Assembly (NCBI GenBank): GCA_964388055.1
Contig: CAYLXU010000007.1
Location: forward strand, 13,661 to 29,037
DNA from: an uncultured Candidatus Saccharibacteria bacterium
GTDB taxonomy: Bacteria > Patescibacteriota > Minisyncoccia > UBA6257 > JACRHW01
DNA: 15,377 nucleotides
Direction: 5' to 3'
A program made the position numbers and the translations under genes. Positions 4,059-7,679 of this stretch are shown piece after piece. The notes below the pieces were generated by a model. The model was not told where the DNA came from and made no database searches. It saw nothing but the letters and a program-made list of their open reading frames with translations. Position 1 is the stretch's first letter. Every line of letters starts with the position of its first letter.

Positions 4059-5537
4059 TCAAAGTGTCTTGCGCACATAATAGTCCACCGGTGCAAAATC
4101 ATCAGTAAGAATCGGTGTGTCATTTTCTACCTCTCCTTTCCATATCTGTTGCAAATATCCATTAATCTCCTCGTTGTCACTCTCAAAACTTGGAGACACG
4201 TCTGACTTTAGCGCGACCAGTATAATATTTTGTACGCGCGCGTTCTCTAATTTTCTTACAGGAAATAAATACACCTGAGGAAACACACTCTTGTATGTGG
4301 CATATTCAGCACGTAAAAATTCTCCCTGAACACCATTAATAGAAGAAATGATATTAATAATCGCGACCCCGTCGTCATGTAATGCACCAAATATTTTTTC
4401 CGTCGCCTCCCTTGTAGTGAGTTGATAGGGGATAGAATAAAGAGCATGAAACGCATCTCCAAAAATAACATCATATTTATTGCGAGTTGTGTTTAAAAAC
4501 GCTCTCGCATCCTCGTGAAAAATATTCAACCTTGGATCGTCTTTGAGATTAAAATAGCGTCGAGCTAACGCCGTTACCCCTTCATCAATCTCCACCACAT
4601 CAAGATACGCGTTGGGATATTGTTTTAAATAATCTCTTGGATATGTATACCCCGCACCACCTATCACAAGGGATTTTTTAATCTCCGGCTTGAAATGTTT
4701 TGCGATACGATAAAACTTGGTGTAGTCGAACACCAAGTCATCCTCTCCTTCTAGAAAAATGGCAGATTGCGTTCCAAACGGATCAAATGCCATGTTAAGA
4801 GTTTCTCTCTGTGTCTTAGAATCAACGCCCTTATAAATAAACACTCTGCTATATTTTGTATCTACATCAGCAACAAGAGATTTACCATACACAAGATGGG
4901 TACCGTTTTTAAAAAATAAAACGGTAAGAAAAAGTGCTATAAAAATTAATTTAGTTTTTAAAAACTTTTTTGAATCAACAGCAACCGCAACAAGAAGAAG
5001 GGTAAGCGCAAGTAAGATCAAAATTCTCTCCGAGCCAACATGAGGAATAAGAAGAAAACCTCCAAAGAATGTGCCAAAAATACTCCCAACAGTAGAAAGC
5101 GCATATAAATTTCCCGCCGTTGTTCCAGCAGTGTTTACGTTTTCTAATTTAAGCTTTAAAGCATAGGGAGAAATCATCCCCAACAACACGCTTGCCGGGG
5201 CAAATAAAATAAGCGCTGAAAAAAACGATGCAAATTCTATGCTTATCAAGCCCTGAAATGGGACAAGCACCATTCCTTTCATAAAAAGAGTGAACGCAAT
5301 GAGGAGAGCAGAGAAAAAAATAATCAACGAAAAAACTTCAATGCGAGGATTGTTGTCAGCCATTCTTCCACCAAACCAATATCCAAAACTTAGGCTTCCC
5401 AAAATCACCCCAATCAAACTAGTCCATACAAAAATAGAGGTACCTAAATAGGGGGCCAATATCCTCGAGCCAACAAGCTCAAAAATCATCACCACTGCCC
5501 CACATAAAAATACTGAGTATTCTAACTTATATCTCAT
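4059..5537 (-). CDS. Membrane-anchored spermidine/spermine synthase family protein (492 aa). An N-terminal multi-TM domain is fused to a C-terminal aminopropyltransferase-like domain.
   Basis: About 200 aa of hydrophobic helices are followed by a spermidine-synthase-like core. The core includes SLVIGGAGYTYPRDYL (a glycine-rich AdoMet-type loop) and DVIFGDAF. SD AGGAGA is upstream. Confidence 0.75.
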   Translation of the reverse strand: MRYKLEYSVFLCGAVVMIFELVGSRILAPYLGTSIFVWTSLIGVILGSLSFGYWFGGRMADNNPRIEVFSLIIFFSALLIAFTLFMKGMVLVPFQGLISIEFASFFSALILFAPASVLLGMISPYALKLKLENVNTAGTTAGNLYALSTVGSIFGTFFGGFLLIPHVGSERILILLALTLLLVAVAVDSKKFLKTKLIFIALFLTVLFFKNGTHLVYGKSLVADVDTKYSRVFIYKGVDSKTQRETLNMAFDPFGTQSAIFLEGEDDLVFDYTKFYRIAKHFKPEIKKSLVIGGAGYTYPRDYLKQYPNAYLDVVEIDEGVTALARRYFNLKDDPRLNIFHEDARAFLNTTRNKYDVIFGDAFHALYSIPYQLTTREATEKIFGALHDDGVAIINIISSINGVQGEFLRAEYATYKSVFPQVYLFPVRKLENARVQNIILVALKSDVSPSFESDNEEINGYLQQIWKGEVENDTPILTDDFAPVDYYVRKTL

Positions 5538-5634: not shown

Positions 5635-5994
5635 TTATGTATCAACCTCTTTCTTTAAAAGATTAATAACCTTCTCTCGCAACCCATATTCTTCGGGAAT
5701 GCGACGCAGATAATATTGCAATGTTTCAATAAATTCATTTGTAGTCATAATAGCTTTACGCTCTTCCTTGGTAAAAAACTTCTGTAGTTTCCCGCGCGCT
5801 TCATCGATACACTGAATCACTTCATCGACTTGATACTCTTTTTCTCCCTCTCCGTGTATCACAGAAAGTATTTTAAGTTCCTTCTTTAAAGCATCGAAAG
5901 AGTCTATGCCTTGAAACGGTGCCTCTGTTTTCGTCGCCCCCACTGCTTCTTGTTGTCTCTTTGTAGAAGCAGGAATTTGTTTTGGTTGTTCCAT
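5635..5994 (-). CDS. Hypothetical protein (119 aa), acidic and hydrophilic.
   Basis: Complete ORF, terminated by the 5594-5624 hairpin. No SD and no recognisable motifs. It lies directly downstream (minus strand) of tRNA-Val and the structured element. Confidence 0.5.
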   Translation of the reverse strand: MEQPKQIPASTKRQQEAVGATKTEAPFQGIDSFDALKKELKILSVIHGEGEKEYQVDEVIQCIDEARGKLQKFFTKEERKAIMTTNEFIETLQYYLRRIPEEYGLREKVINLLKKEVDT

Positions 5995-6041
5995 GAAAAA
6001 GTTAGGCCAAACAAAAGATTTAAATGAATACTCCTCGGCTT

Positions 6042-6060
6042 ACTCTTCAAAACTTTGGAC
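6042..6060. repeat. Left arm of a perfect 19-bp inverted repeat (ACTCTTCAAAACTTTGGAC).
   Basis: Its exact reverse complement lies at 6262-6280. Confidence 0.9.
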
Positions 6061-6061
6061 A

Positions 6062-6080
6062 GTGGACGGTACAGGACTCG
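6062..6080 (-). repeat. 19-nt direct duplicate of the 3' end of tRNA-Val (T-loop through discriminator, gtggacggtacaggactcg).
   Basis: 6062-6080 is identical to 6192-6210. The next 8 nt (gtcacaac) resemble the inverted complement of the adjacent tRNA segment (gtcacagg). Confidence 0.85.
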
Positions 6081-6190
6081 GTCACAACTTTTTTGCTTCG
6101 CAAAAAGTCGCGACCCCGCCTCCCCCGATAGTCATCGGGGTCCGGCTTTCGAGTCCTGGCGCAAACAAATAAATTTGCTTACTTACCCTC
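6081..6190 (-). other. Structured non-coding element between tRNA-Val and the 119-aa ORF. It may be an RNA (attenuator, processing or leader element) or an att-site remnant.
   Basis: Minus-strand hairpins are present. ACTTTTTGC-gaa-GCAAAAAAGT is the plus-strand inverted repeat at about 6086-6109, rc-mapped from plus cttttttgc(6087-6095)...gcaaaaag(6100-6107). CCCCGAT-gact-ATCGGGG comes from the plus-strand palindrome ccccgat(6124-6130)-agtc-atcgggg(6135-6141), and shares its CCCCG with the alternative pairing GACCCCG/CGGGGTC. CAGGACTCG pairs with CGAGTCCTG of the duplicated tRNA tail. Confidence 0.35.
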
Positions 6191-6192
6191 GG

Positions 6193-6265
6193 TGGACGGT
6201 ACAGGACTCGAACCTGTGACCCTCTCGGTGTAAACGAGATGCTCTACCAACTGAGCTAACCGTCC
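6193..6265 (-). tRNA. tRNA-Val, anticodon UAC, 73 nt. CCA is not encoded.
   Basis: Manual cloverleaf: acceptor GGACGGT/ACCGTCC, D-arm GCTC-AGTTGGTA-GAGC, anticodon arm TCTCG-TTTACAC-CGAGA (anticodon TAC), variable loop GGGTC, T-arm ACAGG-TTCGAGT-CCTGT, discriminator A. Confidence 0.9.
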
Positions 6266-6280
6266 AAAGTTTTGAAGAGT
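6262..6280. repeat. Right arm of the perfect 19-bp inverted repeat. It overlaps the first 4 nt of tRNA-Val.
   Basis: The reverse complement of 6262-6280 equals 6042-6060 exactly. Confidence 0.9.
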
Positions 6281-6285
6281 GTAAA

Positions 6286-6336
6286 CGGAGAAAATAAAGA
6301 CCTTTATTTTCTCCTCCAACGAACTGAGCTAAGCAT
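6286..6336. repeat. Perfect 13-bp-stem AT-rich hairpin (GGAGAAAATAAAG-acc-CTTTATTTTCTCC, 6286-6314). It is followed by a tRNA 5'-fragment-like sequence at 6318-6336.
   Basis: The stem was read directly. 6318-6336 (ccaacgaactgagctaagc) resembles the D-arm region of the adjacent tRNA (accaactgagctaaccg). Confidence 0.6.
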
Positions 6337-6387
6337 GCCTTTTATGTATTTCAAAATAAAACATTTTTCCCAAAAAATCAATATACA

Positions 6388-6416
6388 TTGACACGGCGCA
6401 TTGTTCAATGTAATAT
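6388..6416 (+). promoter_or_regulatory. Sigma70 promoter of the 406-aa membrane-protein gene. TTGACA (6388-6393), 17-nt spacer, TAATAT (6411-6416).
   Basis: Consensus -35, exact 17-nt spacer and a near-consensus -10. It lies about 43 nt upstream of the ATG at 6459. SD AAAGGGG is at 6443-6449. Confidence 0.6.
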
Positions 6417-6458
6417 ACTTTCGGCAGCTCATCGACAACCAGAAAGGGGTGTCATCAC

Positions 6459-7679
6459 ATGAAACGAAACATCGCGTTTTTTTTAAGTGTATTTCTTCTA
6501 GCACTTTTTGCGCCAGCCTACGCGACTCCTGAAAATCTTTCCCAGGAAGGAACTCGACTCTTTATACCAAGAGAGCAAGTGGAAGCCCTCCTCCCTATCA
6601 AGTACCGTATTGAGGGGATCATACAAGGAGCAGAAGGGCTGACAGACAAGACAAACGCAAACAAAGCGGTTACACAACAACTTTCTCTTGCAAAAAATAT
6701 TCTTGGACGCGAAACAAATGTGAAAGAACTCCTGAATCTTCAACCACCCCCACCCCCTCAGCTTACCCCGCTTCAAAAGGCGGCAGGTTTTGTAACATTT
6801 GTAAACATCCTTTGGGTCTTTGCGATCTGTTTGCTCCTGATGAGTCTCTGGTATCTTATCCCACGATGGTTCGGGTGGGTAGTGCTCATTTTCCAAATGA
6901 TTCCTGCAGAACTCTACGAACTGCTTCTCTATGCCGCAAGTTTTGGACTTGTCCTCTACGGTGCACAGCTGGATCCAGAAATCGGACAGTATCTTGCCCT
7001 CACCGGATGCCTCTTCCTTATGGGATCACTCACTTTCACGACGTACCTACACGAACTTAAACTAAGCGGAACAGGGTTCTCCGGAATCCTCTTTATTGCA
7101 TGGGCGCTTGCAGCAGTGATTTGCAACAGTCCGCTTGTAGGATTTCTCGCTATCATGGCGCTTATGAGTGCACTTGGGTTCAGCATCATTGTTACACCCA
7201 TGTGTTATGGAATCGGTTTTGAAGAAGAGAGTTTTGTGGGAAGAGCAACCTCTGCAGCATTTATTGTACTTGGCATCTTCGTAGTTCTCCGCATTACAGG
7301 AGCCCAACTCCCCTACATAATGGTATTCGAAAAAGGAGCCCTCTTTATGGGAAGTTTTGTGGGATACCTCGGACTTCTTATTGCATCGTCCCGGTGGTTC
7401 ATGAACCGTAGTCCCGAAGGATACATCGGGTTCCAGCTTCTCACTATTCTTGCCGGAGTTGCAGCGCTCTTTGTAGGATCTACGTGGAACATCGCAGAAC
7501 TTCAAAAAATCGGTGGAACATTCTTCGTCCTATACCTGATCGAAAAAACAATGGAAATTCCGGTAGACAAAAAAGAGCACTACGCATACATCCTACTCTT
7601 TCTCTCACTCCTTATCTATGGGCTTTGTATGTTTATCAAAACACATTTTGATCTCGTCCGCCCATATCTGTTTATGTAA
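6459..7679 (+). CDS. Integral membrane protein of unknown function (406 aa). A signal peptide and a roughly 110-aa extracytoplasmic domain are followed by a PPPPP linker and about 9 TM helices.
   Basis: N-terminus MKRNIAFFLSVFLLALFAPAYA-TPE has a signal-peptidase-I-like AYA|T site. QPPPPPQLTP follows, then repeated hydrophobic segments to the C-terminus. A promoter, SD and terminator are all present. Confidence 0.75.
   Translation: MKRNIAFFLSVFLLALFAPAYATPENLSQEGTRLFIPREQVEALLPIKYRIEGIIQGAEGLTDKTNANKAVTQQLSLAKNILGRETNVKELLNLQPPPPPQLTPLQKAAGFVTFVNILWVFAICLLLMSLWYLIPRWFGWVVLIFQMIPAELYELLLYAASFGLVLYGAQLDPEIGQYLALTGCLFLMGSLTFTTYLHELKLSGTGFSGILFIAWALAAVICNSPLVGFLAIMALMSALGFSIIVTPMCYGIGFEEESFVGRATSAAFIVLGIFVVLRITGAQLPYIMVFEKGALFMGSFVGYLGLLIASSRWFMNRSPEGYIGFQLLTILAGVAALFVGSTWNIAELQKIGGTFFVLYLIEKTMEIPVDKKEHYAYILLFLSLLIYGLCMFIKTHFDLVRPYLFM

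Follow-up and report, generated by a model that had tools for sequence, protein, structure and literature searches.

A conserved folded unit, here called X, lies directly behind the only tRNA gene placed in a 15,377-nt stretch of DNA from an uncultured Candidatus Saccharibacteria bacterium (the window, meaning the whole stretch analysed). X is about 130–150 nt long, and comparison with two further copies showed a conserved structure on the tRNA-sense strand behind three different tRNAs. At slightly better than even odds (a probability of about 0.55), we consider X to be a small, non-autonomous, sporadically distributed folded element that inserts at tRNA 3′ ends in Patescibacteria. The 111-nt “spacer” between the two 19-nt repeats of the tRNA tail is the body of X, a conserved folded unit and not debris or random residue.

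ARAGORN and Rfam placed one tRNA in the window, a minus-strand tRNA-Val(TAC) (6265..6191/6193 by ARAGORN), whose cloverleaf with its anticodon scored 73.2 bits against RF00005 (gathering threshold 29), bearing out the tRNA-Val of the original prediction. The duplication of its 19-nt tail was exact (6062–6080 = 6192–6210), two matches being found in 0 of 200 shuffles; on the tRNA strand this 19-mer, termed S below, comprises tRNA positions 56–73 and one further base. The sequence of the window tRNA-Val is identical in metagenome loci L073, L074 and L076, and despite this identity the duplicated tail was not found in any of them. Two smaller features that had been predicted upstream were also recovered, namely the perfect 13-bp hairpin and the tRNA 5′-like fragment, 14 nt of which (6319–6332) are 93% identical to tRNA-Val nt 8–21 (6246–6259). 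In relatives, tRNA-Ile(TAT) lies directly upstream of tRNA-Val(TAC). ARAGORN called no tRNA at the 5′-like fragment, even with introns allowed, and the fragment (GGCATGCTTAGCTCAGTTCGTTGGAG) is probably a decayed tRNA piece. A hidden outer or intron-bearing tRNA was also sought in the window and in L076 by ARAGORN with introns allowed and a low threshold, and none was obtained. The coordinates of all features are listed in Table 1.

Table 1 Features of the tRNA-Val(TAC) and X region in the window.
Feature	Position	Strand	Description
Promoter candidate, sigma-70-like	6380..6408	(-)	TTGAAC, 17 nt, TATATT; upstream of the tRNA unit; consensus match
tRNA 5′-like fragment	6314..6339	(-)	GGCATGCTTAGCTCAGTTCGTTGGAG; occupies the place of the relatives' tRNA-Ile(TAT)
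Perfect 13-bp hairpin	6287-6299 / 6302-6314 (6287..6314)	(.)	Between the tRNA fragment and the outer-helix arm
Outer helix 5′ arm	6259..6280	(-)	15-nt leader (ACTCTTCAAAACTTT) plus tRNA nt 1-7; pairs with 6042-6063 in the minimum-energy fold
tRNA-Val(TAC)	6193..6265	(-)	Intact, canonical; CCA not encoded
Proximal S (last 19 nt of the tRNA unit)	6192..6210	(-)	T-loop 56-60, 3′ T-stem, 3′ acceptor strand, A73, one C
X arm P1-5′	6184..6190	(-)	GAGGGTA; complementary in 6/7 to TACCGTC in either S copy; predicted folds
X hairpin A	6161..6182	(-)	Conserved apex GCAAATTTATTTG; helix 1 with 9 pairs, 4 changed on both sides, 100% paired
X anti-T arm (stem B 5′ strand)	6148..6158 (6158..6148)	(-)	CAGGACTCGAA; exact 11-nt complement of T-loop plus 3′ T-stem
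X core	6081..6147	(-)	Junction GAAAGCCGGA, hairpin C, block GAGGCGGGGTCGCGAC, hairpin D, GTTGTGAC
Distal S (X 3′ arm)	6062..6080	(-)	Stem B 3′ strand (CGAGTCCTG), P1 3′ strand (TACCGTC), then CAC
Outer helix 3′ arm	6042..6063	(-)	ACTGTCCAAAGTTTTGAAGAGT; repeat search and fold

On the tRNA strand, all three copies of X have the same layout, in which a tRNA ending in S is followed by arms complementary to S and split by hairpin A, then by a two-hairpin core (C and D) and then by a 3′ arm resembling S. The arms are ordered as a short segment complementary to the 3′ strand of the acceptor stem, hairpin A, and an 11-nt segment complementary to the T-loop and 3′ T-stem; the latter (CAGGACTCGAA in the window) had been overlooked in the original prediction. 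Equivalents of P1-5′ were found in the two homologues (CGAGG in L078 and GTGCAC in L115), each matching its own upstream tRNA. The core corresponds to helices 3–6 of the consensus fold, and helix 5 holds two invariant G·U pairs. Of the 8 pairs of stem B (helix 2), 4 vary in a compensatory manner among the three homologues, and in the window the distal S is identical to the tRNA end at 19 of 19 positions. Because the same layout recurs in three copies, we read the window's second 19-mer, on these comparisons, as the 3′ arm of X, forming the 3′ strand of stem B and P1, and not as the edge of a lost genomic island. The original prediction had taken this distal repeat for an integration footprint, a view that the two conserved helices argue against. 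The 111 nt contain no ORF, X was not called as a tRNA by Rfam or ARAGORN, and Rfam 15 held no family for the window or the L078 spacer, giving chance-level matches only (E ≥ 2.7).

A metagenome scan with a 37-mer of tRNA-Val gave 16 loci, and short-word BLAST over all fetched loci identified a homologue in L078 as two collinear blocks on the tRNA strand, between tRNA-Leu(GAG) and tRNA-Val(GAC). The alignment of the window with L078 includes a 16/16 block, and the conserved blocks are GCAAATTTATTTG, GAA(A/G)GCCGGA, GAGGCGGGGTCGCGAC and GTTGTG(A/G)CC; the stems between them differ in sequence and keep their pairing. The two-sequence RNAalifold consensus had 40 pairs, of which 13 were changed on both sides (compensatory). 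A covariance model built from the window and L078 copies found no match in the first ~325 kb of loci. Relatives of L078 were then collected via the RluA gene and scanned with this model, which returned a third copy (L115, 4964–5113; 52 bits, E = 2e-13) located 3 nt behind a tRNA-Arg(TCG). L078 and L115 are other Patescibacteria contigs, carrying X behind tRNA-Leu(GAG) and tRNA-Arg(TCG), respectively, and the L078 copy was found in three assemblies. In the L078 and L115 genomes, sampling gave one X copy per roughly 14–20 kb.

The three-copy alignment was fitted to the model, which biases its pair counts towards structure, and it had 36 shared pairs that were 99% paired, 15 of them changed on both sides. 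Slid controls, in which the partners were moved by 1–3 columns, gave 39–45% pairing and at most two pairs changed on both sides. With L115, hairpin A and stem D gained further compensatory changes. Both these new pair types and the outcome of the slid controls argue that the covariation signal in these sequences is real despite the model-fitted alignment. G·U cells accounted for 15 of 101, two G·U pairs being invariant, and the fold of X is therefore assigned to the tRNA-sense strand and is strand-specific. Searches of other collections gave no further copies: the spacer had no blastn match in the phage collection, the exact pattern of its core had 0 matches in metagenomes, the exact pattern of hairpin C had 0 in viral contigs, and the conserved 16-mer and gapped core patterns gave none or GC-rich chance matches in viral contigs.

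The arms of X match the tRNA that precedes them. By ungapped identity counts, the anti-T arm was complementary to its upstream tRNA at 11 of 11 positions in the window and L115 and at 9 of 11 in L078 (10 counting G·U), and no other tRNA of the locus matched it as well; ranking whole-arm duplexes over 50 tRNA tails proved too noisy. In a survey of 66 tRNAs, an 11/11 match within 300 nt downstream was limited to the window tRNA-Val and the L115 tRNA-Arg, and upstream controls reached at most 9. The 3′ arm appears as a solid copy of the neighbouring tRNA tail in the window, a partial one in L115, where S is diverged yet recognisable (CGATT then CGGGCGCAC) and the C-to-U changes preserve G·U pairs, and a weak one in L078, which has only CAAATCC and CTCG in common with the tRNA-Leu tail. 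In L115, the anti-T arm fits the real tRNA better than it fits X's own 3′ arm. This asymmetry, with an arm perfect to the tRNA and a drifting 3′ arm, suggests a constraint on the arm from two partners, and it is a hint that X acts at the RNA level and is not purely selfish. It keeps a cis-regulatory reading alive, and that reading is compatible with the one of a mobile element.

The L078 relatives share the gene order FtsH, tRNA-Ile(TAT), tRNA-Val(TAC), RluA, L19, tRNA-Leu(GAG), tRNA-Val(GAC). The spacer between the last two genes is 159 nt in L078, where it contains X, and X is absent from it in L107 (7 nt), L115 (8 nt), L113 (9 nt), L104 (12 nt), L103 (29 nt), L094 (60 nt) and L117 (96 nt). 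At the second site, L107 and L115 have an identical tRNA-Arg gene and the same downstream gene, with a gap of 8 nt in L107 and X in L115. In the L078/L115 clade, two genomes have one X each, at different sites, and the window adds a third kind of tRNA. Both sites are free of X in sister genomes that retain the gene order, so that X has the character of a sporadic insertion, and the distribution of the three copies, at two sites in one clade and one in the window lineage, suggests that it is mobile. X was not found at 15 other tRNA-Val(TAC) loci. The search for an empty site that the original prediction had proposed thus succeeded for the homologues (L107 and other sisters) and yielded none at the window's own site in a close relative, the nearest relatives having ~50% protein identity and not being syntenic. 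An X-less allele of the window would read from the tRNA directly into TGTCCAAAG.

The perfect 19-bp inverted repeat of the original prediction was confirmed in its coordinates, with 6042–6060 pairing exactly with 6262–6280, 201 nt between the arms and a 4-nt overlap with the tRNA; 0 of 200 shuffles gave a match. It extends to 22 nt at 95% (6042–6063 / 6259–6280), the lone mismatch being a G·U pair in RNA, and its arm overlaps tRNA nt 1–4 in the 19-nt version or nt 1–7 in the 22-nt version. The 19/22-bp repeat is an outer helix of leader against trailer that closes the tRNA together with X, and it could have originated as a native leader–trailer pair, as part of X or as an inverted duplication. 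The flanks form a continuous duplex of 22 bp with one G·U, against the ~20 bp or more of an RNase III helix, and this predicted geometry is compatible with RNase III processing. The helix takes in tRNA nt 1–7, so that its formation or cleavage would compete with the acceptor stem. An 8-bp outer helix (TAAAACTA / TGGTTTTG) closes X in the same position in L078, no outer-helix complementarity was seen on reading the X flanks in L115, and the outer helix is not conserved at other tRNA-Val loci. Leader–trailer pairing was not general (median z = -0.15 over 54 tRNAs) and was limited to a few of the loci scanned, namely L076, L085 and the tRNA-Ile of L074.

Folding and transcription signals were examined on the minus strand. 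Thermodynamic prediction, which ignores tRNA tertiary structure, gave a free minimum of -123.4 kcal/mol for 6035–6290 (z = -9.7), against a best value of -109.4 kcal/mol for 6290..6035 with the tRNA held as a cloverleaf. In the predicted free minimum, the arms of X pair with the tRNA tail, the distal S completes the T-stem, and the leader–trailer helix takes the place of the acceptor stem; in prefix folds, the arms are predicted to invade the tRNA 3′ half once they are transcribed. Between 5900 and 6500 there were three promoter-like sites (0.6 expected), the minus-strand candidate being divergent from a plus-strand candidate at 6388–6416. The terminator scan of 5900–6500 found none, including between the tRNA, X and the 119-aa ORF.

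Under the preferred reading of X as a non-autonomous element inserting at tRNA 3′ ends, the promoter-like site at 6408..6380 would give rise to a transcript containing both the tRNA and X, in which the arms would have two possible partners, the tail of the tRNA itself and the copy of that tail in X. Its spread may depend on an enzyme whose gene lies outside the window and on a pathway in which the final ~19 nt of the tRNA are used or duplicated. The direct repeat is in keeping with recombination at S by an integrase supplied in trans, and the agreement of the arms with three different tRNAs is in keeping with their use as guides. The constant position at which hairpin A interrupts the complementary arms is not easily accounted for by templated insertion. 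The earlier description of a small non-autonomous element built from tRNA pieces agrees in part with these data, in that X is small, partly tRNA-like, located at a tRNA 3′ end and accompanied by no recombinase in the window, and that its homologues have empty sites. We entertain more tentatively a bolder version, in which X would be a mobile RNA-level element of an undescribed class whose arms guide it to the last ~18 nt of one tRNA or tRNA gene, with the 3′ arm masking its own target copy and changes in the arms retargeting it as in guide-bearing introns, or else a built-in switch holding the neighbouring tRNA in a non-native form.

The same pairing could instead be regulatory. X would then be a cis-acting functional RNA module of the tRNA transcript and not a selfish one; its arms would compete with the tRNA 3′ half, and the choice between tail and decoy, along with the 22-bp RNase III-type site, would control tRNA-Val maturation or the separation of the tRNA from the downstream mRNA. 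Strand-specific structure with invariant G·U pairs, a predicted minimum fold in which the arms invade the tRNA 3′ half (-123.4 vs -109.4 kcal/mol), the L115 arm that is complementary to the real tRNA at 11 of 11 positions while C-to-U drift of the 3′ arm keeps G·U, as under a two-partner constraint, and the lack of a terminator between the tRNA, X and the 119-aa ORF all point this way. The energy model, however, leaves out tRNA tertiary structure, the outer helix, long in the window, shrinks to 8 bp in L078 and is not apparent in L115, and X stands behind three unrelated tRNAs while the same tRNAs occur in sister genomes without it and 15 other tRNA-Val(TAC) loci lack it. We regard a cis-acting function of this kind as unlikely, though worth keeping in view.

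Other explanations fared worse. A scarred integration hotspot had been proposed; spelled out, a phage or island with a tyrosine integrase would have entered the tRNA-Val 3′ end and left 19-bp attL/attR repeats, the interior being later deleted to 111 bp. The hotspot part stands, in that tRNA 3′ ends are classical hot spots, the direct repeat spans the T-loop to the discriminator, the usual att position, and IMG/VR phages integrated in tRNA-Val genes elsewhere in bacteria have this very 19-mer as their attP/attL core. The scar of a large island does not: homologues of the 111 bp lie behind two other tRNAs in other genomes, where boundaries and fold are the same, an outcome on which independent deletions would not converge, no integrase is encoded in the 15 kb, and the spacer has no match in phage collections, so that the scar reading is largely refuted and we hold it to be improbable. 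We give still less credit to a MITE-like cassette with 19-bp terminal inverted repeats, carrying tRNA-Val and X as cargo and moved by a cut-and-paste transposase. The perfect inverted repeat at the outer ends and the bracketing of tRNA-Val(TAC) by unrelated inverted repeats in L076 (13 bp) and L085 speak for it. Yet the predicted MITE family did not materialise: the 19-mer arm occurs twice in the window and, among the other loci and IMG/VR, only in Logan contigs of the window's own organism (L001, L067) and in one IMG/VR match that lacks a tRNA or X-like context and equals roughly the number estimated for chance. The homologues have different or no outer ends, the innermost 4–7 nt of the arm belong to the acceptor strand of the tRNA itself, no target-site duplication adjoins the arms (the flanks GTTTAC and AAGCCG have nothing in common), and the window encodes no transposase. 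It is very improbable indeed that the arrangement is an assembly artefact produced by a chimeric join at the conserved tRNA. Same-sample Logan contigs do break at 6108 and 6230, leaving 6109–6229 uncovered, but a chimeric join would not produce a leader and trailer perfectly complementary over 19 nt, homologous copies of X occur in independent assemblies, and the 19-nt repeat is shorter than the usual assembly k-mers.

X shares traits with att duplications, MITE-like repeats and mobile introns, and fits none of them. Like att duplications, it has a direct repeat of the T-loop-to-discriminator segment beside an intact tRNA and is absent in sister genomes, and the same tRNA-Val core serves phages elsewhere (IMG/VR). 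Unlike those of tyrosine integrases (prophages, islands and cis-mobilisable remnants), its repeats are 111 nt apart with no integrase or island genes between them; they match at 19 of 19 positions in the window, partially in L115 and weakly in L078, and X has arms complementary to the core, a covarying strand-specific fold and the same body behind three tRNAs. Neisseria Correia and Rickettsia palindromic elements are bacterial MITE-type repeats that are co-transcribed and folded. X resembles them in being small, non-coding, sporadic and strongly folded, with an outer helix that is a possible RNase III substrate, and differs in that its ends vary between copies and are not shared terminal inverted repeats, it lacks a short target duplication, its arms track the neighbouring tRNA, and its copy number seems low.

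Mobile introns pair with their targets through guides, the internal guide sequence in group I and EBS/IBS in group II, and X likewise has segments that are the complement of what immediately precedes its site of insertion. Group I introns occur in Patescibacteria tRNA genes (PMC13011429), and we count this known intron-hosting as a further likeness. X differs in lying after the tRNA and not inside it and in carrying a second copy of the target; the tRNA upstream of X is intact, and Rfam gave no intron match (no Intron_gpI). Even the smallest group I introns known to us are also much larger than X. Primer-binding sites of retroviruses and LTR elements are complementary to tRNA 3′ ends, and X is similar in that ~18 nt of it are complementary to a single, specific tRNA, over its T-loop, T-stem and 3′ acceptor strand. 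A primer-binding role of the arms is nevertheless unlikely, because the pairing ends before CCA, so that a mature tRNA end could not prime; the arm is also split by a hairpin, and there is no reverse transcriptase nearby. In rRNA and tRNA precursors, helices of leader and trailer are cut by RNase III. The window helix is comparable as a continuous 22 bp formed by sequences flanking the mature RNA, and unlike such helices it includes tRNA nt 1–7 and is not conserved at other tRNA-Val loci. Literature searches gave no description of an X-like element, the nearest being the group I introns of Patescibacteria tRNAs (PMC13011429).

On three copies, we place X among the small non-coding insertions at tRNA genes, as a variant of its own, with a real chance of its being more unusual than that. 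The ends of tRNA genes are the best-known landing sites of mobile DNA, and their known residents are either large elements that encode proteins or plain repeats, whereas X would be a folded RNA resident of ~130 nt with arms tailored to whichever tRNA precedes it. If so, it may represent a new guide-like choice of tRNA targets in bacteria with tiny genomes or, alternatively, a new coupling of tRNA folding to a neighbouring RNA. For annotation, duplicated tRNA tails in such genomes need not mean lost islands.

Homologues of the flanking genes gave no closely related locus. The nearest loci and proteins were from Patescibacteria MAGs with only about 50–55% identity, and these did not keep the order of genes near the tRNA; in GTDB genomes, identity at loci of the 492-aa neighbour reached 55% at most, with no tRNA-Val nearby, and homologues of the 406-aa neighbour had at best 51% identity and were not syntenic. 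As the original prediction had noted for integrases, no integrase, transposase, reverse transcriptase or recombinase domain was present in any ORF of the 15-kb window. Its genes encode a Mur ligase, a spermidine-synthase-like membrane protein, a Band-7 protein, dCTP deaminase, ThyA, DHFR, an amidase and an ATP-dependent ligase, and the 119-aa ORF downstream of X is an orphan.

The tRNA-Val(TAC) gene was immediately preceded on its 5' side by tRNA-Ile(TAT) in the comparison loci L074, L076, L078, L083, L094, L103, L104, L107, L113, and L117. The slot occupied by this gene in the relatives held just a 26-nt fragment resembling the 5' part of a tRNA, along with a 13-bp hairpin, in the window (6281-6372, minus strand), and tRNA-Ile(TAT) therefore seems to have been lost from this position or to have moved elsewhere. 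The spacer between the two genes was 6-16 nt long in L094, L104, and L107, whereas it reached 139-145 nt in L078 and L103. The partial tRNA-Ile copy found in these long spacers lacked the first ~15 nt, and its anticodon loop carried, after position 37, a hairpin-rich insert of ~62 nt bordered by a TATA repeat. In each of the two loci, the partial copy had an acceptor variant that was absent from the intact tRNA-Ile.

Coordinates of features in the window and the comparison loci
Feature	Locus and position	Strand	Remarks
Long Ile-Val spacers	L078 1013-1157; L103 2854-2992		Occupied by a second, partial tRNA-Ile copy
119-aa ORF	Window 5635-5994	Minus	Start 47 nt past the outer helix (leader-trailer pairing that closes tRNA-Val and X)
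Invariant internal loop GCC-GGA ... GA-GGC	Window 6118-6146 and equivalent positions in L078 and L115		Base of hairpin C, 3/3 copies
tRNA 5'-end duplications	L074 646-708; L083 about 4890-4990; L117 9366-9504		In L083, upstream of tRNA-Ile at 4711
tRNA-Val(TAC) in inverted repeat	L076 3362-3572	Minus	Sequence identical to the window's tRNA-Val

The 19-mer that ends tRNA-Val in the window and recurs as the 3' arm of X, the conserved folded element directly 3' of this gene, was also located in viral sequences. This exact sequence, CGAGTCCTGTACCGTCCAC, was examined in the IMG/VR contigs L002-L012; it corresponds to the 3' terminus of tRNA-Val(GAC)-type genes. Several viral contigs of ~40 kb from other hosts (L005, L007-L009, and L011) contained it as an isolated piece of tRNA tail. 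A tRNA-phage junction was visible in the IMG/VR contig L010. These free-standing tails and the junction indicate that the tRNA-Val tail is in use as an attachment site elsewhere.

In sample ERR15087765, the Logan contigs bearing the two flanking genes ended at window positions 6108 and 6230, leaving 6109-6229, namely the 5' half of X and the 3' half of the tRNA, without coverage. The 6230 break falls just upstream of a 37-mer (6228..6192) common to many other organisms. Within X, the tandem G/A positions of the internal loop at the base of hairpin C could form sheared pairs, making this loop a possible protein-binding or kink-like motif. No terminator was found between the tRNA plus X and the 119-aa ORF, which had no homologue but itself among 5.8 billion proteins searched and no match in Pfam or PHROG.

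Partial tRNA duplication took another form in L074, L083, and L117, where the first ~14 nt of an intact tRNA were repeated directly 5' of that tRNA. Where a D-loop would be expected, this repeat ran into either a hairpin or a double hairpin of ~100 nt; the 3' strand of the D-stem (GGTAGAGC or GGTTAGAGCG) came next, ahead of the normal leader. The arrangement looks like a second type of small structured insert that comes with a partly duplicated tRNA. The tRNA-Val(TAC) of the metagenome locus L076 was enclosed by a 13-bp inverted repeat (CCCCCACCGGATTT / AAATCCGGAGGGG), outside which one flank bore a tRNA-like 5' half (GGGCAATTAGCTCAG...) and the other a tRNA-like 3' half, its T-arm intact, with a matching acceptor strand and CCA. 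The outer halves paired with each other in the minimum-energy fold, and the locus looks like a tRNA nested within a split pseudo-tRNA.
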